The notes below the pieces were generated by a model. It did not search any database. It worked only from the letters and a program-made list of their open reading frames with translations, and was not told the origin of the DNA. The translations under genes were made by a program, and so were the position numbers. This document shows positions 9,774 to 59,443 of a stretch of DNA of 64,000 nt, one piece after another. Source of the stretch: a phage; sequence record PZ534512.1, one strand, 5' to 3'. How positions within the stretch are numbered: the first letter of the stretch is position 1; the number at the start of each line of letters is the position of its first letter.

Positions 9774-10136
9774 ATGAAAGCATATCAAATTCTTGAAGGC
9801 ACACATAAAGGTACTATTTATTTTGAAGATGGTATTCAAGCACGAATTATTGTCTCTAAAACCTTTAAAGAGGACTCTTTTGTAGACCCAGAAATTTTCT
9901 ATGGTTTGCATGCCCGTGAAATTGAAATTGAGCAACAGCCTACAGTTAAAATTGAAGGTGGTCAACACCTGAACGTTAACGTTCTGCGTCGCGAAACTTT
10001 GGAAGATGCAGTTAAGCATCCGGAAAAATATCCGCAGCTGACCATCCGTGTATCCGGTTATGCAGTTCGCTTTAACTCTCTGACTCCGGAACAGCAGCGC
10101 GACGTTATCGCTCGTACCTTTACTGAGAGTTTGTAA
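9774..10136 (+). CDS. autonomous glycyl-radical cofactor (GrcA/YfiD-like)
   Basis: C-terminal glycyl radical motif [27 protein letters not shown]; 120 aa. Confidence 0.8.
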
Positions 10137-10357
10137 TGGCAAAGATAATTATTGAAGGTTCTAAAGATGTGCTAAATGCTTTCGCCGAGTGGTTTAGTAA
10201 TTCAGGCGAACAGCAATTTAATGAAGCCTGGAATATGGGTGATATTGATGGAATTTATCCTACGACAGAAATTTCTGTTCAAGGATATGGCATTCATGAA
10301 CCTATTCGTTTAGTTGAATATGATTTATGTACTGGTGAGGAAGTCAAATATGATTGA
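10136..10357 (+). CDS. hypothetical protein (73 aa)
   Basis: TAATG overlap with upstream gene. Confidence 0.45.
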   Translation: MAKIIIEGSKDVLNAFAEWFSNSGEQQFNEAWNMGDIDGIYPTTEISVQGYGIHEPIRLVEYDLCTGEEVKYD

Positions 10358-10616
10358 AGACATTAAAGGTTATAAGCCGCATACTGAAGAGAAAATCGGT
10401 AAAGTGAATGCTATTAAAGACGCTGAAGTTCGTTTAGGACTTATCTTTGACGCTTTATACGATGAATTCTGGGAAGCACTAGATAATTGTGAAGATGATG
10501 AACTCGCGAAGAATTATGCTGAAAGCCTCGATCAGTTAACTATTGCTAAAACGAAACTCAAAGAAGCCAGTATGTGGGCTTGTCGTGCAGTGTTCCAACC
10601 AGAGGAAAAATACTAA
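10350..10616 (+). CDS. Acb2-like cyclic-oligonucleotide sponge candidate (T4 vs.4 position), 88 aa
   Basis: position 4 genes upstream of regB; small helical acidic protein; AGGAAG RBS; assignment from recall. Confidence 0.45.
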
Positions 10617-10894
10617 TGGCTCAATTAAGTGCAGGGTTTGGTTATGAGTATTATACTGCACCTCGTCGTGTATCTGCCGCTCCTAAGAAAATTCAAAGTC
10701 TTGATGACTTCCAGGAAGTAGTCCGTAAAGCTTTTCAGGACTATGCACGCTATCTTAAAGAAGATTCGCAGGACTGTCTCGAAGAAGATGAAATTGCTTA
10801 CTATGAGCAGCGTCTTGAACAGCTTAAAAACTTACATGAGGTTCGTGCAGAAGTTTCAAAGTCTATGAATAAATTGATTAGATTTAAAGAATAA
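10616..10894 (+). CDS. hypothetical protein (92 aa)
   Basis: TAATG coupling to upstream gene. Confidence 0.45.
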
Positions 10895-10896
10895 CT

Positions 10897-10926
10897 GTTT
10901 ACTTTTCCTCTTGACTGTGGTATAAT
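10897..10926 (+). promoter_or_regulatory. T4-type early promoter
   Basis: GTTTAC-N18-TATAAT. Confidence 0.65.
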
Positions 10927-10953
10927 TTTTCTATCAGTTAAGAGGAGAATAAC

Positions 10954-11415
10954 ATGACTATCAACACTGAAGTTTTTATCCGTCGAAATAAGCTTCGTCG
11001 TCACTTTGAGTCGGAGTTTCGTCAAATTAACAATGAGATTCGTGAGGCATCAAAAGCAGCAGGGGTCTCATCGTTTCATCTAAAATATTCTCAGCATCTT
11101 CTTGATCGTGCAATTCAACGGGAGATTGATGAGACATATGTTTTTGAATTATTCCATAAAATAAAAGATCATGTTTTAGAAGTTAATGAATTCCTGAGTA
11201 TGCCTCCGCGTCCTGACATTGACGAGGATTTTATTGATGGGGTTGAATATCGTCCTGGACGTTTAGAAATCACAGATGGAAATCTTTGGCTTGGATTTAC
11301 AGTTTGTAAGCCTAATGAGAAGTTCAAAAACCCGTCACTTCAATGCAGGATGGCAATTATCAACAGTCGTCGTTTACCAGGAAAGGCTTCTAAAGCAGTA
11401 ATTAAAACTCAATGA
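10954..11415 (+). CDS. regB: RegB site-specific endoribonuclease
   Basis: 153 aa; matches T4 RegB as I recall it. Confidence 0.85.
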   Translation: MTINTEVFIRRNKLRRHFESEFRQINNEIREASKAAGVSSFHLKYSQHLLDRAIQREIDETYVFELFHKIKDHVLEVNEFLSMPPRPDIDEDFIDGVEYRPGRLEITDGNLWLGFTVCKPNEKFKNPSLQCRMAIINSRRLPGKASKAVIKTQ

Positions 11416-11422
11416 GGTAAAC

Positions 11423-11968
11423 ATGAGAAAAGCACTACTCGCTGGTCTATTGGCCATTTCAATGATGGCACATAGCTCCGAGCATACTTTCAGTAATGTC
11501 CAACTCGATAACATGCGTTACGCGTATCAATTCGGGGAACAATTTTCTAAGGATGGAAAATATAAAACACACAAAAATATCCACAAGAGCGGATTAGGTC
11601 ATATAATGGCTGCCATTTTATGGCAAGAAAGCTCTGGCGGAGTTAATTTAAAATCTAAACCAAAGCATCACGCCTACGGAATGTTCCAAAATTATTTGCC
11701 TACTATGCGAGCAAGAGTTAAGGAACTTGGTTATAATATGACCGATGCTGAAATAAAAAGAATGTTGAATAAACGGTCCAATTCAGCTTCCTGGGCGTAC
11801 ATTGAACTTTCTTATTGGTTAAATATACATAAGGGCGATATAAGAAAAGCAATATCCTCTTATAATTCGGGATGGAATGTTAAAGCAGGTTCTAAATATG
11901 CTTCTGAAGTCCTAGAAAAGGCTAATTACCTTAAAAATAATAAACTTTTGGAAATAGTAAATGACTAA
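11423..11968 (+). CDS. secreted lytic-transglycosylase-like protein (T4 vs.1 position)
   Basis: signal peptide; SLT-like motif LWQESSGG...AYGMFQ. Confidence 0.55.
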   Translation: MRKALLAGLLAISMMAHSSEHTFSNVQLDNMRYAYQFGEQFSKDGKYKTHKNIHKSGLGHIMAAILWQESSGGVNLKSKPKHHAYGMFQNYLPTMRARVKELGYNMTDAEIKRMLNKRSNSASWAYIELSYWLNIHKGDIRKAISSYNSGWNVKAGSKYASEVLEKANYLKNNKLLEIVND

Positions 11969-12302
11969 AATTTTGGTTTTATGTATAGGATTAATTTCAT
12001 TTTCTGCGTTAGCAGATACATCATATACTGAAATTAGAGAGTATGTAAACCGTACTGCAGCGGATTATTGCGGGAAAAATAAAGCATGCCAAGCTGAATT
12101 TGCGCAGAAATTAATATATGCATATAAAGACGGAGAAAGAGATAAATCAAGCAGATACAAAAATGATACATTGTTAAAACGATATGCTAAAAAGTGGAAT
12201 ACCTTAGAATGTTCAGTTGCGGAGGAGAAAGATAAAGCCGCTTGTCATTCAATGGTTGACCGTTTGGTAGATTCTTATAATCGAGGATTGAGTACTAGAT
12301 GA
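11961..12302 (+). CDS. exported small protein at T4 vs position (113 aa)
   Basis: signal peptide MTKILVLCIGLISFSALA; positional assignment only. Confidence 0.4.
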   Translation: MTKILVLCIGLISFSALADTSYTEIREYVNRTAADYCGKNKACQAEFAQKLIYAYKDGERDKSSRYKNDTLLKRYAKKWNTLECSVAEEKDKAACHSMVDRLVDSYNRGLSTR

Positions 12303-12778
12303 TTGTAAAATATATCAAGGGCGATATTGTCGCCCTCTTTCTTGAAGGTAATATTATTGCGCACGGGTGCAATTGTTTTCATACAATGGGCAGTGGTGTA
12401 GCTGGTCAATTAGCAAGAGCCTATCCCAAAATTTTAGAAATAGATAAGACCACAACTGAATATGGTTCGCGTGAAAAACTCGGTGATATGTCTATTGTTT
12501 TTAAACATAAACCTAATGGTTTTGGCATATGTTATAACTTGTATACGCAATACGAACCAGGTCCTAATCTTGATTATGGTGCTTTAGTAAACTGCATGAT
12601 AGAATTAAATCTACAGGCAGAAACCCTTTTGTTTAAACCGGTAATTTACATTCCACGCATAGGTTGTGGTATTGCTGGCGGCGATTGGGATAAGGTTTCT
12701 AAATTAATCGACATGTTTACTCCTGATATTGATTTAATAGTGGTGGATTATGAAAGTGCATTACCCGCATCCGTTTGA
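12299..12778 (+). CDS. macrodomain (ADP-ribose binding/hydrolase-like) protein
   Basis: IKGDIV...AHGCNCFHTMGSGVAGQ and IPRIGCGIAGGDW motifs typical of Macro domains. Confidence 0.6.
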   Translation: MIVKYIKGDIVALFLEGNIIAHGCNCFHTMGSGVAGQLARAYPKILEIDKTTTEYGSREKLGDMSIVFKHKPNGFGICYNLYTQYEPGPNLDYGALVNCMIELNLQAETLLFKPVIYIPRIGCGIAGGDWDKVSKLIDMFTPDIDLIVVDYESALPASV

Positions 12779-12962
12779 TCCTAAAAACAAAGCAGTAATT
12801 ATTCGTCAATGGGAACGCATTTGCCGTACTAAATGTCCAATTAATAGTCCACATGATGTAGATAAAGACTACATTGGAACATTCGTTGAATATACCTTTA
12901 TTGATAAGAAAGGTCGTAAACAACATGTAGAAGAATATTGCTTAAAGGTTACATGGTTATGA
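12750..12962 (+). CDS. hypothetical protein (70 aa)
   Basis: ORF track; overlaps upstream gene end. Confidence 0.4.
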   Translation: MKVHYPHPFDPKNKAVIIRQWERICRTKCPINSPHDVDKDYIGTFVEYTFIDKKGRKQHVEEYCLKVTWL

Positions 12963-13165
12963 GCCAAACTAGTATTCTTAAAAATGCCCACTGTGAAAAG
13001 TGTAAGTGGCCTGTTGTTTTTGCTTTATGTAATGATGAAATGGCTTGTGATTTCGATTATTGGTGCTATTGTTCTAATAAAGGATGCATCAATCATAAAG
13101 GTGAAGGATTTTATTCGGGATTTTATCCTTATCCTGATTTCGTTAAAGAAGGTAAACCAAAATGA
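12938..13165 (+). CDS. Cys-rich zinc-binding small protein (75 aa)
   Basis: CEKCK...CNDEMAC...CYCSNKGC cysteine clusters. Confidence 0.45.
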   Translation: MLKGYMVMSQTSILKNAHCEKCKWPVVFALCNDEMACDFDYWCYCSNKGCINHKGEGFYSGFYPYPDFVKEGKPK

Positions 13166-13338
13166 ATGATGATTTAAAATATCAATTATTACGTGAACTT
13201 GATGTTTTGATTGAACTTTCTGCACAAAAAGGATTTATAATTGGATCGGGTCAAAAAGACCCCAACGGTCATTCAATCGTAGCGGTTATGAATCAGAAAC
13301 GAGTCATTTTAAAACTTTTGGGGATTGACATACTGTGA
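13162..13338 (+). CDS. small hypothetical protein (58 aa)
   Basis: ATGA overlap with upstream stop; below ORF-track cutoff. Confidence 0.35.
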   Translation: MNDDLKYQLLRELDVLIELSAQKGFIIGSGQKDPNGHSIVAVMNQKRVILKLLGIDIL

Positions 13339-13520
13339 GCCTAAGCAAAGAACAAAAAGATAAATTGTTTGAGCTTATCCATGAACTTCTAGATGAGCAT
13401 GCAGAAGCAAACACCTTTTATGATGAATACGGCCCGCTATCTCCCGAACAGCAGGAAGAATTTGCTGATCGGTTTGATAAGAAAGAAAATGAATTAATAG
13501 CTTATGTGAATACGCTTTAA
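13335..13520 (+). CDS. acidic hypothetical protein (61 aa)
   Basis: GTG start overlapping upstream stop. Confidence 0.4.
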   Translation: MSLSKEQKDKLFELIHELLDEHAEANTFYDEYGPLSPEQQEEFADRFDKKENELIAYVNTL

Positions 13521-26434: not shown

Positions 26435-26698
26435 ATGTTTAAAGTATATGGTTATGATAGCAACATCCATAAATGTGTGTATTGCGATAATGCAAAACGT
26501 CTTTTGACTGTGAAGAAACAGCCGTTTGAATTTATCAACATTATGCCGGAAAAAGGTGTTTTTGATGATGAGAAAATTGCTGAGCTTCTGACGAAACTAG
26601 GTCGTGATACTCAAATCGGCTTGACAGTGCCTCAGGTATTTGCTCCTGATGGAAGTCATATTGGTGGATTTGACCAACTGCGAGAATATTTTAAATGA
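26435..26698 (+). CDS. nrdC: glutaredoxin/thioredoxin NrdC
   Basis: 87 aa; CVYC active site; matches T4 NrdC. Confidence 0.92.
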   Translation: MFKVYGYDSNIHKCVYCDNAKRLLTVKKQPFEFINIMPEKGVFDDEKIAELLTKLGRDTQIGLTVPQVFAPDGSHIGGFDQLREYFK

Positions 26699-26910
26699 TG
26701 CTCGAAGGAACTGACTATATTCATGATTACCGCGGAAGCGCGGTATATGTAGGTGATGAAGTTGCAGTTTATTATGGGTATGGAACTTTGATGACAGCCA
26801 AGGTTATTCAAATTAAAAATAATCGTGCTAAACTTGAAGTTTATTATTCTAATGGTGAAAAGTCTATTTCTAAGTGGAAATACGGCGATTGTATGGTCAA
26901 ACTGGGGTAA
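26695..26910 (+). CDS. hypothetical protein (71 aa)
   Basis: ATGA overlap with nrdC. Confidence 0.5.
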   Translation: MMLEGTDYIHDYRGSAVYVGDEVAVYYGYGTLMTAKVIQIKNNRAKLEVYYSNGEKSISKWKYGDCMVKLG

Positions 26911-26912
26911 AT

Positions 26913-27083
26913 ATGATTTACGATATTAATGTAGCAAGAGCTTCGTCAATGGTTACTATTCCTGCTGAAGAACTAGATCGTCTTCATAAAATTGAAGAAC
27001 TTCTTTGGGAAATTGAATGTGACCTGCCATCAGGACTAGAATCCTGGATTGATGATGAAGAACTTAATAAATTGCGAAATTAA
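26913..27083 (+). CDS. hypothetical protein (56 aa)
   Basis: internal ATG with GGGG RBS; alternative start 26874. Confidence 0.35.
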   Translation: MIYDINVARASSMVTIPAEELDRLHKIEELLWEIECDLPSGLESWIDDEELNKLRN

Positions 27084-27093
27084 TTGGTGAAAA

Positions 27094-27414
27094 ATGACTA
27101 TTGAAAATAAATTAGATGTTGATGCAGTTCTGAGCGAAATCATTGAAGACCATGATGCATTTTCGGAAAACTATGATTTCGATTTTTCCGATTATCTTAA
27201 ACCTATCGAAATAGAAGACTGGGTGCAAGATGGTAAATGCCAATATCGTCAGTGTGTTTACTTTAGTCCAAAACATAATGTACATGTAGCGGTAAATGAA
27301 TCTCGGTCAGGTTCTTATCATTCTGACTGGTATTATGCAGTTCCGACTGTTGAACTAGTCGAGCCCCGTGAACGTGTAGTAACTCAGATAGTACGAGAAT
27401 GGATTACGCTATAA
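27094..27414 (+). CDS. hypothetical protein (106 aa)
   Basis: GGTGAAAAA RBS. Confidence 0.5.
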   Translation: MTIENKLDVDAVLSEIIEDHDAFSENYDFDFSDYLKPIEIEDWVQDGKCQYRQCVYFSPKHNVHVAVNESRSGSYHSDWYYAVPTVELVEPRERVVTQIVREWITL

Positions 27415-27537
27415 AACCTTGGTGGGCGGCTAGATGGGAAACTGTAGAGCCAGAGCCGGAAGAACCGGTTTACACTGATGAAGAAACAGTATATAATGAA
27501 CCAACGATAAATGACTTAATTGATATGGAGATGGGAC

Positions 27538-28023
27538 ATGATTACAGTAGATAAGTGGTTTAGAATTAATCGTGCTGATACAGTGCTGTGTAATTACTGG
27601 CCGGAACTTAGTGCAGGTACTGTCTTTAAAGTTCGTGAACTTGCAAAAGAATGTGAAGATGATATAGAGCCTGATACTGGAATTATTGAAATTGAACTTT
27701 CCGACGGAAAGATTATTAATATCTATGATAAGCCAATTACGTATTGGTGCTTATGGAATACTGAATCCGTTGAAAATGGCGAAATTGAAGAAGTTGTAGA
27801 GCGAACTAATCAAGTTGTTCAGAAGCCTAAAGCCGATTTTCAAGGTGAACGTATTTCATACGCATTAGCTAAATTAGCTGCACAAGAAAATAACGATGGC
27901 TATGAAGGAAATTTGATGCAAGCTGCGGCAGAATATATTGAATGGCTTGAAACCCAAATTTCTTTTTCTGACCAAAAGATTCGGCAATATAAGCGATTGA
28001 ATCAAATGTTTTACAATACTTGA
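27538..28023 (+). CDS. pin: Lon protease inhibitor PinA-like
   Basis: 161 aa from internal ATG; position immediately upstream of gene 49 as in T4. Confidence 0.55.
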   Translation: MITVDKWFRINRADTVLCNYWPELSAGTVFKVRELAKECEDDIEPDTGIIEIELSDGKIINIYDKPITYWCLWNTESVENGEIEEVVERTNQVVQKPKADFQGERISYALAKLAAQENNDGYEGNLMQAAAEYIEWLETQISFSDQKIRQYKRLNQMFYNT

Positions 28024-28064
28024 AAATAATAAATACCCTTATCTATTTAAGGTAAGGGTTTATT

Positions 28065-28538
28065 ATGTTATTGACTGGCAAATTATATAAAGAAGAAAAA
28101 CAGAAATTTTATGATGCGCAAAACGGTAAATGCTTAATTTGCCAACGAGAACTAAATCCTGATGTTCAAGCTAATCACCTCGATCATGACCATGAATTAA
28201 ATGGACCAAAAGCAGGAAAGGTACGTGGATTGCTTTGTAATCTCTGCAATGCTGCAGAAGGTCAAATGAAGCACAAATTTAATCGTTCTGGCTTAAAGGG
28301 ACAAGGTGTTGATTATCTTGAATGGTTAGAAAATTTACTTACTTATTTAAAATCCGATTACACCCAAAATAATATTCACCCTAACTTTGTTGGAGATAAA
28401 TCAAAGGAATTTTCTCGTTTAGGAAAAGAGGAAATGATGGCCGAGATGCTTCAAAGAGGATTTGAATATAATGAATCTGACACCAAAACACAGTTAATAG
28501 CTTCATTTAAGAAGCAGCTTAGAAAGAGTTTAAAATGA
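28065..28538 (+). CDS. 49: endonuclease VII (Holliday junction resolvase)
   Basis: 157 aa; zinc cluster CLICQ...CNLCN; H-N-H-like core; matches T4 gp49. Confidence 0.92.
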   Translation: MLLTGKLYKEEKQKFYDAQNGKCLICQRELNPDVQANHLDHDHELNGPKAGKVRGLLCNLCNAAEGQMKHKFNRSGLKGQGVDYLEWLENLLTYLKSDYTQNNIHPNFVGDKSKEFSRLGKEEMMAEMLQRGFEYNESDTKTQLIASFKKQLRKSLK

Positions 28539-30352
28539 CAATTGAAAAAGAAATTGAAGGATTGATTCATAAAACTAATAAAGACCTTTTAAACGAGAAT
28601 GCTAATAAAGATTCTCGTGTTTTTCCAACTCAACGGGACCTTATGGCTGGTATTGTGTCTAAACACATTGCCAAAAATATGGTCCCGTCTTTTATTATGA
28701 AAGCGCATGAAAGCGGAATTATTCATTTCCACGATATTGATTATTCCCCTGCTCTTCCATTTACTAATTGTTGTTTAGTAGATTTAAAAGGAATGCTTGA
28801 GAATGGATTTAAGCTTGGTAATGCGCAGATTGAAACTCCTAAATCAATTGGAGTTGCTACTGCAATTATGGCACAAATTACTGCACAGGTTGCTTCCCAT
28901 CAATACGGCGGAACGACTTTTGCTAATGTAGATAAAGTACTTTCTCCTTATGTTAAACGCACCTATGCAAAACATATTGAGGATGCAGAAAAATGGCAAA
29001 TCGCCGATGCACTGAATTATGCTCAATCTAAAACAGAAAAAGACGTATACGATGCATTCCAAGCTTATGAATATGAAGTAAATACTCTCTTTAGTTCAAA
29101 CGGACAAACGCCTTTTGTAACAATTACATTTGGTACGGGAACTGACTGGACTGAACGAATGATTCAGAAAGCAATTCTGAAAAATCGTATTAAAGGTCTT
29201 GGTCGTGATGGGATAACTCCTATTTTCCCTAAGCTTGTTATGTTCGTTGAAGAAGGTGTTAATCTTTATAAAGACGATCCGAACTATGATATTAAGCAGC
29301 TTGCTCTAGAGTGTGCAAGCAAAAGGATGTATCCTGATATTATTTCAGCTAAGAACAATAAAGCTATCACTGGTTCATCTGTTCCTGTTTCTCCAATGGG
29401 TTGCCGTAGTTTCTTGAGCGTATGGAAAGATTCGACTGGTAATGAAATTCTTGATGGACGTAATAATCTTGGTGTTGTAACACTGAATCTTCCTCGCATC
29501 GCGTTAGATTCTTATATTGGAACACAATTCAATGAACAGAAATTTGTTGAGCTATTTAATGAACGAATGGATTTATGTTTTGAAGCTTTGATGTGTAGAA
29601 TTAGTTCCTTAAAAGGAGTTAAAGCTACTGTTGCTCCTATTCTTTACCAAGAAGGTGCATTCGGGGTTCGTCTTAAACCTGATGACGACATAATTGAGTT
29701 ATTTAAAAACGGTAGAAGTTCAGTGTCCCTAGGATACATTGGTATTCACGAATTGAATATTCTTGTCGGTCGTGATATTGGACAAGAAATTTTAACTAAG
29801 ATGAATGCTCATCTTAAACAGTGGACTGAAAGAACTGGATTTGCTTTTAGTTTATATTCGACTCCTGCTGAAAACCTTTGTTATCGCTTCTGTAAACTTG
29901 ATACAGAAAAATATGGAAGTGTAAAAGATGTTACCGATAAAGGCTGGTACACTAACAGTTTCCATGTTTCAGTAGAAGAAAATATTACTCCGTTTGAAAA
30001 GATTTCTCGTGAAGCGCCATATCATTTCATTGCGACAGGTGGTCACATTTCTTATGTTGAACTTCCTGATATGAAAAATAACTTAAAAGGCCTTGAGGCC
30101 GTATGGGATTATGCTGCGCAACATTTAGATTATTTTGGTGTTAACATGCCGGTAGATAAATGTTTTACATGCGGAAGTACCCATGAAATGACTCCTACTG
30201 AAAACGGATTTGTTTGTTCTATTTGTGGAGAAACTGATCCTAAAAAGATGAATACAATAAGAAGAACATGTGGTTATTTGGGAAATCCGAACGAACGTGG
30301 ATTTAATCTCGGCAAAAATAAAGAAATCATGCATAGGGTTAAGCATCAATGA
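28535..30352 (+). CDS. nrdD: anaerobic ribonucleotide reductase NrdD, intron-less
   Basis: 605 aa continuous; C-terminal glycyl-radical motif RRTCGYLG and Zn site CTCGSTH...CSICG. Confidence 0.95.
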   Translation: MTIEKEIEGLIHKTNKDLLNENANKDSRVFPTQRDLMAGIVSKHIAKNMVPSFIMKAHESGIIHFHDIDYSPALPFTNCCLVDLKGMLENGFKLGNAQIETPKSIGVATAIMAQITAQVASHQYGGTTFANVDKVLSPYVKRTYAKHIEDAEKWQIADALNYAQSKTEKDVYDAFQAYEYEVNTLFSSNGQTPFVTITFGTGTDWTERMIQKAILKNRIKGLGRDGITPIFPKLVMFVEEGVNLYKDDPNYDIKQLALECASKRMYPDIISAKNNKAITGSSVPVSPMGCRSFLSVWKDSTGNEILDGRNNLGVVTLNLPRIALDSYIGTQFNEQKFVELFNERMDLCFEALMCRISSLKGVKATVAPILYQEGAFGVRLKPDDDIIELFKNGRSSVSLGYIGIHELNILVGRDIGQEILTKMNAHLKQWTERTGFAFSLYSTPAENLCYRFCKLDTEKYGSVKDVTDKGWYTNSFHVSVEENITPFEKISREAPYHFIATGGHISYVELPDMKNNLKGLEAVWDYAAQHLDYFGVNMPVDKCFTCGSTHEMTPTENGFVCSICGETDPKKMNTIRRTCGYLGNPNERGFNLGKNKEIMHRVKHQ

Positions 30353-30819
30353 ATTATGATAGATTTTATCCTTGCGATTTTGTGAATGGCCCTGGTTGCA
30401 GGGTCGTTCTTTTCGTTACAGGTTGTTTGCATAAATGCGAAGGGTGTTATAATAAATCAACATGGAATGCTAGAAATGGTATTCCATTCACTGGTGAAAC
30501 ACTAGAACAATTAATTGAATGTTTGAATAATGATTATATAGAAGGATTGACTATAACTGGAGGAGACCCTCTCTATCCGGATAATCGAGATGTTATTCAT
30601 TGCATTGTTCAAACAGTAAAAAATCTTTATCCCAATAAAAGCATTTGGTTGTGGACAGGATATAAGTTTGAAGATATTAAACAACTAGAAATGCTTAAAT
30701 ATGTTGATGTTATTATTGATGGGAAGTATGAGAAAAATCTTCCGACTAAAAAGCTGTGGCGAGGATCAGATAATCAGCAACTTTGGTCAAATACCGATGG
30801 GGTGTGGAAACATGATTAA
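30349..30819 (+). CDS. nrdG: NrdD activating enzyme (radical SAM) NrdG
   Basis: 156 aa; CxxxCxxC cluster CLHKCEGC; ATGA overlap with nrdD. Confidence 0.92.
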   Translation: MNYDRFYPCDFVNGPGCRVVLFVTGCLHKCEGCYNKSTWNARNGIPFTGETLEQLIECLNNDYIEGLTITGGDPLYPDNRDVIHCIVQTVKNLYPNKSIWLWTGYKFEDIKQLEMLKYVDVIIDGKYEKNLPTKKLWRGSDNQQLWSNTDGVWKHD

Positions 30820-58220: not shown

Positions 58221-58844
58221 ATGATTATTAATCTTGCAGATGTTGAACAGTTATCTATAAAAGCTGAAAGCGTTGATTTTCAATATGATATGTATAAAAA
58301 GGTCTGTGAAAAATTTACTGACTTTGAGCAGTCTGTTCTTTGGCAATGTATGGAAGCCAAAAAGAATGAAGCTCTTCATAGGCAGTTGAATAAAATCGTT
58401 AAAAAGCATTTAACTAAATCGCCTTATCAGTTATATCGTGGTATATCAAAATCGACAAAAGAACTTATTAAAGATTTACAAGTTGGAGAAGTGTTTTCAA
58501 CGAACAGGGTAGATTCATTTACTACTAGTTTGCTCACAGCATGTTCTTTTTCTTACGCTGAATATTTTACTAAAATAATACTTCGCTTAAAAACTGATAA
58601 AGCTTTTAATTACTCTGACCATATCAGCGATATTATACTTTCTTCTCCTAATACTGAGTTTAAGTACACGTATGAAGATACTGATGGGCTAGATTCAGAG
58701 CGTACTGATAACTTAATGATGATTGTGCGTGAACAAGAATGGATGATTCCAATTGGAAAGTATAGAATAACTTCTATTTCAAAAGAAAAATTACACGATT
58801 CATTTGGAACATTTAAAGTTTATGATATTGAGGTAGTTGAATGA
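58221..58844 (+). CDS. modB: ADP-ribosyltransferase ModB
   Basis: 207 aa; R-S-E ART motif elements (LYRG, FSTN, EQEWMIP); tandem with modA. Confidence 0.75.
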   Translation: MIINLADVEQLSIKAESVDFQYDMYKKVCEKFTDFEQSVLWQCMEAKKNEALHRQLNKIVKKHLTKSPYQLYRGISKSTKELIKDLQVGEVFSTNRVDSFTTSLLTACSFSYAEYFTKIILRLKTDKAFNYSDHISDIILSSPNTEFKYTYEDTDGLDSERTDNLMMIVREQEWMIPIGKYRITSISKEKLHDSFGTFKVYDIEVVE

Positions 58845-59443
58845 AATACTCAGTAATGCAACTAAAAGATTTTAAAATAAAATCAATGGATGCATCGGTG
58901 CGTGCTTCTATTCGTGAAGAATTACTTTCTGAAGGGTTTAATTTATCTGAAATTGAACTTTTAATTCATTGTATTACTAATAAACCAGATGACCATACTT
59001 GGTTAAATGAAATAATCAAATCTCGTTTGGTTCCAAACGATAAACCTCTTTGGAGAGGTGTTCCAGCTGAGACTAAACAAGTATTAAATCAAGGAATTGA
59101 TATTATTACATTTGATAAAGTCGTATCAGCTTCATATGATAAAAATATAGCTCTACATTTTGCTTCTGGATTAGAATATAACACACAAGTTATTTTTGAA
59201 TTTAAAGCTCCTATGGTATTCAATTTCCAGGAGTATGCTATAAAAGCTCTACGCTGTAAAGAATACAATCCAAACTTTAAGTTTCCGGATAGCCATCGTT
59301 ATCGTAATATGGAATTAGTTTCAGATGAACAAGAAGTAATGATACCAGCTGGAAGTGTATTTAGAATTGCAGATAGATATGAGTATAAAAAGTATTCAAC
59401 ATACACTATCTATACTCTTGATTTTGAAGGATTTAATCTATAA
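58841..59443 (+). CDS. modA: ADP-ribosyltransferase ModA
   Basis: 200 aa; R-S-E motif elements (LWRG, SAS, EQEVMIP). Confidence 0.75.
   Translation: MKYSVMQLKDFKIKSMDASVRASIREELLSEGFNLSEIELLIHCITNKPDDHTWLNEIIKSRLVPNDKPLWRGVPAETKQVLNQGIDIITFDKVVSASYDKNIALHFASGLEYNTQVIFEFKAPMVFNFQEYAIKALRCKEYNPNFKFPDSHRYRNMELVSDEQEVMIPAGSVFRIADRYEYKKYSTYTIYTLDFEGFNL

Follow-up and report, generated by a model that had tools for sequence, protein, structure and literature searches.

A divergent allele of the T-even macrodomain gene tk.4/adfM with a predicted glutamine-type active site and a probable role against DarTG2

A 64,000-nucleotide stretch of phage DNA (sequence record PZ534512.1, referred to below as the window) includes an open reading frame (ORF) of 159 amino acids (aa) that encodes a macrodomain protein. 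The ORF has an ATG start and is located at positions 12299 to 12778 on the plus strand. It had been singled out in an earlier note made from the sequence alone, and it was found at the place given there, with both of the motifs quoted in that note present. Judged from its sequence and genomic position, the ORF represents the T-even phage gene tk.4, since renamed adfM, in a divergent allelic form. We consider it probable that the product is a DNA de-ADP-ribosylase that counters DarT2 using a glutamine-type, SCO6735-like mechanism. If so, this T-even anti-DarTG2 factor would rely on a glutamine site of the SCO6735 type and not on the lysine of DarG. The basic picture, in which phages carry macrodomains that undo host ADP-ribose chemistry, is unchanged.

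The ORF is not a chance reading frame but a genuine gene for a phage macrodomain protein. The Pfam Macro profile (PF01661), whose gathering cut-off is 22, matches at 34.4 bits (E = 2.4e-8) over positions 2-117 of its 118, and the PHROG 335 profile matches with E = 2.5e-71. Homologues were found in approximately 2,770 of 50,697 phage records, representing many groups of large lytic phages. Relative to five homologues, the ratio of non-synonymous to synonymous substitution rates (dN/dS) is 0.09-0.23, which indicates that the gene is under purifying selection. An AlphaFold2 model, for which 103 homologues were aligned, has a mean predicted local distance difference test score (pLDDT) of 94.1 and a predicted template modelling score (pTM) of 0.89. 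Its fold is three-layered (alpha/beta/alpha), its central sheet is mixed, and it can be superposed on solved macrodomains. When the PDB was searched using Foldseek, the macrodomains of TARG1, Poa1p, BT1257 and DarG were matched with template modelling (TM) scores of approximately 0.7-0.8, with TARG1 and Poa1p at the top with scores of 0.72-0.82. The motifs of the ADP-ribose cleft, G31-S-G33 and G122-C-G124-I-A-G-G128, are retained in the ORF, as they are in its family and in all macrodomains compared. Sequence and model together assign the product to the TARG1/DarG/Poa1p ('ALC1-like') class as a predicted stand-alone macrodomain hydrolase. The ADP-ribose-binding or -hydrolysing macrodomain proposed earlier is borne out at the level of sequence, modelled fold and conserved pocket residues.

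The window comes from a Tequatrovirus, and its region containing the ORF is 99.3% identical to the Tequatrovirus phages AdolfPortmann (BASEL Bas44) and Ge15. The protein is 100% identical to bas44_0227 of AdolfPortmann (Bas44, MZ501046; found using tblastn), where it is labelled 'hypothetical protein'. The gene order is regB, vs.1, vs, the macrodomain gene (macro), a tk.3-like gene, three small ORFs and tk, which puts macro in the slot occupied by tk.4 in T4. T4 Tk.4 (NP_049723, 155 aa) shares 58% identity with the ORF product over 155 aa (E = 4e-69), whereas the proteins encoded by the neighbouring genes are 96-100% identical to their T4 counterparts. The position between vs and tk.3, full-length homology and the clade signature (H-G-C-N-C-F, N-L-Y-T-Q and a short PGPN loop) all place the ORF in the Tk.4/AdfM group. 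Orthology to tk.4/adfM means that this kind of gene has already been described. An annotation as adfM/tk.4 orthologue can replace the current 'hypothetical protein' in Bas44 and 'phosphatase' elsewhere; the RefSeq label of T4 Tk.4 is 'phosphatase; contains A1pp phosphatase motif'.

The window allele and T4 Tk.4 have in common the invariant residues of the family, including H22, N25 and Q84, as well as the short QxxPGPN loop, and their first 14 residues and a 5' hairpin are identical. However, the diphosphate loop of T4 Tk.4 is GAGIGKGNW, which is off-consensus, whereas the window allele has the family consensus GCGIAGGDW. This consensus was found in at least 90% of relatives, and T4 Tk.4 (NC_000866, 60922-61389) departs from it by A126G and G127K. 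The C-terminus of the window allele is also 4 residues longer and reaches 29 nt into tk.3, and the coding sequence is sharply diverged between flanks that are 97-100% identical. The anti-DarTG2 phenotype is that of the T4 allele only. From the sequence relationship, we infer that the 58%-identical allele in the window would act like T4 Tk.4, by DNA de-ADP-ribosylation.

In T4, tk.4 was the single significant hit when transposon insertions were screened (HIDEN-SEQ) on a DarTG2-expressing host, and a clean tk.4 knock-out sensitized T4 to DarTG2. The gene was renamed adfM, for anti-DarT factor Macrodomain, and removal of ADP-ribose from DNA by T4 AdfM was proposed without biochemistry, as what 'seems likely' (bioRxiv 10.1101/2025.11.20.689424). 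DarTG2 resistance persists in T2 and T4 without adfN and in T4 without both adfA and adfN (PMC11825919), and a further anti-DarTG2 factor was therefore expected. A second protein named AdfM, gp104 of PhiKZ, strips DarT2 marks from DNA in vitro (PMC13309987), and a macrodomain strategy against DarT2 thus exists in phages. The earlier suggestion that the protein could reverse defensive ADP-ribosylation of the DarT type gains support from orthology, as the ORF lies in the tk.4 slot and tk.4 is needed by T4 on DarTG2. Thoeris-positive hosts had been suggested as a further test, but nothing in the sequence, the neighbouring genes or the literature matches points to Thoeris, at which no search was aimed.

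Two possible precedents among phages were considered and rejected. Membership of the PhiKZ gp104 clade is not supported, as the BLASTP E value is 0.02 and the PADLOC DarG model gives E = 4e-7 for the ORF versus 4e-39 for gp104. PhiKZ gp104 is thus a true protein of the DarG-like kind, and the name 'AdfM' covers two different macrodomain clades. AdfB of ICP1 is described as a direct DarT binder and has low similarity to DarG, and it was not retained as a phage macrodomain precedent.

The residues H22, G23, N25, C26, G33, A35, N80, Y82, Q84, P119, G122, G124 and W130 are invariant in the alignment of 103 family sequences. The segments that contain them are all encoded on the plus strand. Codons for H22-G23-C24-N25 are at 12362-12373; H22 corresponds to H24 of the phosphatase Adpp and H23 of Poa1p, and N25 to N27 of SCO6735 and N23 of PhiKZ AdfM. 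The GxG of the ADP-ribose cleft, G31-S32-G33, is encoded at 12389-12397, with G33 invariant and G31 at least 90% conserved. N80-L-Y-T-Q84 and the short loop YEPGPNLDY that follows it are encoded at 12536-12577. The diphosphate-binding loop, P119-R-I-G-C-G-I-A-G-G-D-W130, is encoded at 12653-12688 and was aligned with TARG1 using hhalign.

In the hhalign profile alignments, Q84 aligns with K80 of the Thermus aquaticus DarG (TaqDarG) and K84 of TARG1, and A126 aligns with D125 of TARG1. This placement of Q84 rests on hhalign and on a published structure-based alignment (PMC9411070), and a MAFFT alignment of distant macrodomains is gapped and ambiguous at this position. In addition, phmmer pushes the NMIGQ of BT1257 into an insertion instead of onto NLYTQ, and this was treated as a local misalignment. 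In this mapping of catalytic residues against DarG, a check proposed in the earlier note, the pocket residues are invariant, but the catalytic lysine of DarG and TARG1 is Q84 here. An invariant glutamine in the position of the lysine leaves no room for the lysine-based catalysis of DarG and TARG1, and the replacement makes a mechanism of the SCO6735 type the best model. It also means that the 'DarG-like' mechanism that has been assumed needs direct testing.

SCO6735, in which the glutamine is Gln85, cleaves the thymidine-ADP-ribose made by DarT on single-stranded DNA and shields Streptomyces coelicolor from DarT (PMC9411070). In the same study, the Q85A mutant was dead and the N27S mutant nearly so, the homologue Bt_1257 was aligned alongside, and both SCO6735 and TARG1 were found to act on PARP1 automodification besides DNA (PMC9411070). 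Among structures and PDB sequences alike, the best match to the ORF is BT1257. Like SCO6735 and BT1257 (PDB 5E3B and 2AFC/2FG1), which are of the Gln-type, ALC1-like kind, the ORF has a glutamine at the position of DarG K80 and TARG1 K84 together with the supporting asparagine, and both Q84 and N25 are invariant in the family. However, SCO6735 and BT1257 are cellular and not phage proteins, and BT1257 is only approximately 28% identical to the ORF product. Their mobile loop is approximately 5 residues longer and includes lysines proposed to hold DNA (PMC9411070), whereas the loop of the ORF, QYEPGPNLDY, has 10 residues and no lysine. In length, the part that follows Q84 is close to the loops of DarG and TARG1.

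The macrodomains of DarG (T. aquaticus and Mycobacterium tuberculosis; PDB 5M31 and 5M3I) and PhiKZ gp104 resemble the ORF product in the proposed activity, removal of DarT2 marks from thymidine, in the similarly short loop past the catalytic position and in a conserved equivalent of N25. DarG differs in its catalytic lysine (K80 in TaqDarG), which corresponds to the invariant Q84. It also has a C-terminal DarT-binding domain, giving a total of approximately 330 aa, that is absent from the 159-aa ORF. The ORF covers only positions 3-144 of the 329 in the PADLOC DarG model and 2-138 of the 338 in the NCBIfam model, and the genes adjacent to it are vs and tk.3, not darT. Human TARG1 (OARD1) has the PRIGCG motif in common with the ORF, but its catalytic dyad, K84 and D125, is represented by Q84 and A126.

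In the proposed mechanism, an early transcript originating upstream of regB would carry the macro gene, with translation coupled to that of vs. The canonical cleft, made up of G31-x-G33 and the P119-W130 diphosphate loop, would hold the ADP-ribose moiety. Q84, held by the conserved N25, would orient the distal ribose, with an activated water doing the chemistry as in the SCO6735 type, and the bond at the ribose C1'' would be hydrolysed. The likeliest substrate in vivo would be the ADP-ribose placed on thymidine N3 of single-stranded phage DNA by the DarT2 of the host, and removal of this mark would let replication go on in hosts that carry DarTG2.

Several observations weigh against this assignment. 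Using BLASTP, the ORF product is much closer to Adpp (39%, E = 2e-26) than to DarG (25%, E = 4e-9) or PhiKZ AdfM (E = 0.02), and it retains H22, the equivalent of the histidine whose mutation inactivates Adpp. The catalytic lysine of DarG is absent, as is the longer lysine-bearing mobile loop tied to DNA handling by the authors of the SCO6735 study (PMC9411070). The NCBIfam model antitoxin_DarG (NF048014) gives 28 bits, relative to a cut-off of 250. The sharp allele replacement could mean that the specificity has changed. Finally, the evidence from T4 is genetic only, and for proteins of the Tk.4 clade DNA de-ADP-ribosylation is described as what 'seems likely' (bioRxiv 10.1101/2025.11.20.689424).

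The similarity to Adpp raises the possibility, which we regard as unlikely, that the protein is primarily an ADP-ribose-1''-phosphate (ADPR-1''-P) phosphatase of the Adpp/Poa1p type, or is bifunctional and also acts on thymidine-ADP-ribose in DNA using a single C1''-directed site. The role would then be with small molecules, either ADPR-1''-P arising from cleavage of nicotinamide adenine dinucleotide (NAD+) by the RES-domain enzyme aRES, or Appr-1''-p from RNA 2'-phosphotransferase. Adpp is a Poa1p-like macro protein found inside NARP1 operons that converts ADPR-1''-P to ADP-ribose in vitro. The RES-domain defence aRES yields ADPR-1''-P, whose dephosphorylation lets NARP1 rebuild NAD+; Adpp was needed for NARP1-AP to beat aRES, and H24A served as the catalytically dead control (bioRxiv 10.64898/2026.01.28.702374). 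The Adpp of Vibrio phage Gary (KNV71_gp137; sequence from Table S1) is the closest homologue of the ORF with a measured activity, at the identity and E value given above, and belongs to the same PHROG 335-like phage macro family. It has the motifs H-x-C-N-C-F, N-x-Y-x-Q-Y and GCGxAGGDW in common with the ORF, and the histidine that is H24 in Adpp and H23 in yeast Poa1p is retained as the invariant H22. Poa1p is also among the top structural matches, the RefSeq label of T4 Tk.4 already names a phosphatase with an A1pp motif, and aRES systems occur in Escherichia coli.

However, Adpp is useful only together with NARP1 (Adps and Namat), which turns ADP-ribose into NAD+, and the neighbours of macro are vs and tk.3 and not genes of a NARP1 operon. 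No Adps homologue was found using tblastn (best E = 1.0) in the window and 150 kb of the near-identical Bas44, a search that left the last 16.8 kb outside and did not include Namat. In the Bas44 annotation, the baseplate module starts at approximately 148 kb. The published list of macro-adjacent NARP1 operons contains no Escherichia phage (bioRxiv 10.64898/2026.01.28.702374). The loop that follows the glutamine also distinguishes the two groups. It is 6-8 residues longer in all eight of the NARP1-linked macro proteins aligned, and in Gary Adpp, which sits in a NARP1 operon and has a small molecule and not DNA as its substrate, it is 7 residues longer and rich in His and Lys. The short form, Q-[YF]-x-P-G-P-N-L-D-Y, was found in 75 of the 103 closest relatives of the ORF. 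Poa1p differs further: its residue aligned with Q84 is neither Q nor K, and a long insertion precedes the diphosphate loop. For Tk.4-clade genes, the one phenotype known is that on DarTG2. Adps-like (ribose-phosphate pyrophosphokinase-like, NARP1) genes were detected in 176 Escherichia phage records. Among the matches listed, the E. coli, Salmonella and Enterobacter phages with Adps have genomes of approximately 89, 142 and 161 kb, compared with approximately 167 kb for Tequatrovirus, and phage groups with genomes of such sizes also carry PHROG 335 macro genes.

As thymidine-ADP-ribose and ADPR-1''-P both have a leaving group on the ribose C1'', an active site that is shared or promiscuous for the two substrates is chemically plausible. 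A broader proposal, which we hold to be doubtful, is that tk.4/adfM is an exchangeable anti-defence cassette with non-equivalent alleles, in which one Gln-type C1'' site would serve for both DarT2 marks on DNA and the ADPR-1''-P made by RES NADases, and in which the Dhakavirus-derived allele would have its own substrate range or its own range of DarT2 variants. If this were true, 'AdfM' and 'Adpp', each described independently in its own preprint, would be two aspects of a single bifunctional family of phage enzymes. With a proven ADPR-1''-P phosphatase in the same phage family, the anti-defence stories of DarTG2 and of aRES/NARP1-AP may share one enzyme scaffold.

That the macro protein instead erases or tunes the marks left on host proteins by the phage's own Alt, ModA and ModB, or ModB-type RNAylation, appears very improbable. 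The earlier note had raised regulation of the phage's own ADP-ribosylation programme on the grounds that ModA and ModB are encoded in the same window, and this much is confirmed: modB is located at 58221-58844 and modA at 58841-59443. Bas44 has two Alt genes besides, and removal of protein-linked ADP-ribose is known in the macrodomain superfamily, with SCO6735 and TARG1 also acting on PARP1 automodification. However, the Alt, ModA and ModB enzymes make arginine-linked ADP-ribose, whereas the linkages handled by the characterized relatives are to thymidine in DNA, to acidic residues in proteins and to the phosphate of ADPR-1''-P. The macro gene is approximately 46 kb from modA and modB and is not co-located with alt, and at this distance presence in the same window is not linkage. 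The family is spread over the approximately 2,770 phage records from many groups, a count that covers the macro gene alone and not carriage of Alt or Mod, and tk.4 was a hit on DarTG2 only in the published screen. No data were found that support the regulatory role suggested earlier. In Bas44 (MZ501046), the two Alt-type ADP-ribosyltransferase genes, Alt and Alt2, are in tandem at 26497-30654, outside the window, and genes for an alpha-glucosyltransferase and a beta-alpha-glucosyltransferase are also present.

We likewise give very little credence to the idea that DarT2, or another ADP-ribosyltransferase or NADase, is neutralized mainly by stoichiometric binding or by sequestration of an ADP-ribose signal, with catalysis dispensable: the dead SCO6735 Q85A does still inhibit DarT in vitro and surpasses dead DarG and dead TARG1 in this (PMC9411070), direct interaction is the presumed mode of action of the anti-DarT factors AdfA and AdfB, and rapid allele turnover at the locus would fit co-evolution with a protein partner, but the invariant residues of the 103 diverse relatives lie at pocket and catalytic positions and not in a surface patch, the dN/dS values represent an enzyme-like constraint, and the DarT-binding C-terminal domain of DarG has no counterpart in a 159-aa protein that matches profile positions 3-144 of 329.

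The extent of the allele replacement was defined using sliding identity profiles and the protein identities for each gene, which place the divergent segment at 12330-12790. Nucleotide identity to T4 is 97-100% up to approximately 12330, 30 nt past the start of the ORF, falls to 42-70% as far as approximately 12790, and then returns to 97-100% through tk.3. In the Dhakavirus phage Esco_phi_B-01, the macro gene is 79-96% identical at the nucleotide level, compared with only 50-70% for regB, vs.1, vs and tk. The additional C-terminal residues, ESALPASV, are common to the window allele and the Dhakavirus alleles. Based on these comparisons, homologous recombination has evidently carried the macro allele across Tevenvirinae genera, with the junctions evidently in the conserved 5' end of the macro gene and at the start of tk.3. 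Such a precisely bounded exchange would be a concrete case of anti-defence gene swapping by homologous recombination. The window allele (at least 90% identity) was found in 319 phage records and the T4-type allele in 224, plus 159 at 80-90%. Using a profile of 57 distant relatives, the window allele scored 184.9 bits versus 168.5 for T4 Tk.4, a comparison that is somewhat biased because the relatives were collected with the window protein as the query.

The 3' end of macro overlaps the tk.3-like ORF (DUF7202) by 29 nt, out of frame, at 12750-12778 on the plus strand, whereas the overlap between tk.4 and tk.3 in T4 is only 4 nt. A second block that is divergent from T4, at 12945-13520 on the plus strand, lies directly 3' of tk.3, and identity is again at least 97% in tk. 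In this block, tk.2 and tk.1 of T4 are replaced by the three small ORFs, also on the plus strand. These encode proteins of 75 aa (Pfam PF23895, a phage zinc-binding domain), 58 aa (PHROG 3452) and 61 aa (DUF7438; 52% identical to T4 Tk.2).

The genes from regB to tk are tightly packed, with overlaps or gaps of only a few bases. The start of macro overlaps the stop of vs in an ATGA at 12299-12302 (plus strand), an arrangement suggestive of coupled translation in the regB-vs.1-vs-macro-tk.3 string. A Shine-Dalgarno-like GAGGA, identical in T4, is at 12283-12287 (plus strand), 11 nt upstream of the ATG, and a second GAG is at 12290-12292 on the same strand, 6 nt upstream. Upstream of regB, at 10898-10926 (plus strand), is the best candidate for a sigma-70-like promoter and the only strong one nearby, a TG-extended TTTACT-17-TATAAT. 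The generic promoter scan gave 17 sites, compared with 23 in shuffled sequence, and only the strongest candidate is therefore reported. A scan of 10000-12400 turned up neither a MotA box nor a late-promoter core. The candidate at 10898-10926 is likely, from its sequence and position, to be the early promoter of the gene string that includes macro. Early expression, as deduced from this arrangement, would fit a need to act before replication.

The 5' hairpin mentioned above is in the coding region of macro at 12318-12336 (plus strand) and was detected in a scan for terminator-like structures. It has a GC-rich stem of 8 bp, AGGGCGAU-AUU-GUCGCCCU, followed by a U-rich tract, with a free energy (dG) of -12.6 kcal/mol and z = -2.7, and it is formed from codons ending in G or C (GGC, GTC, GCC) in an AT-rich genome. 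T4, NR1 and two Dhakavirus loci retain the stem, but the Gelderlandvirus SEA1 lacks it. In the Dhakavirus alleles, a change in the loop, ATT to ATC, spares the stem while nearby synonymous sites differ. An Rfam scan of 10.5-14.5 kb at E <= 1 matched no family, indicating that the hairpin is absent from the catalogued RNAs. Its position is that of the left recombination junction of the divergent allele. Attenuation and mRNA stability are possible roles, or the hairpin may simply be a recombination patch that has been conserved.

Some of the names in the reference annotations are odd. RefSeq gives T4 mobD.4 the name 'molybdopterin-guanine dinucleotide biosynthesis protein MobD' and lists the product of T4 tk.3 as 'Tk.2 conserved hypothetical protein'. 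Both of the Bas44 mod genes are noted as 'ModA', yet the product of 207 aa is the size of ModB. These look like errors of name propagation.

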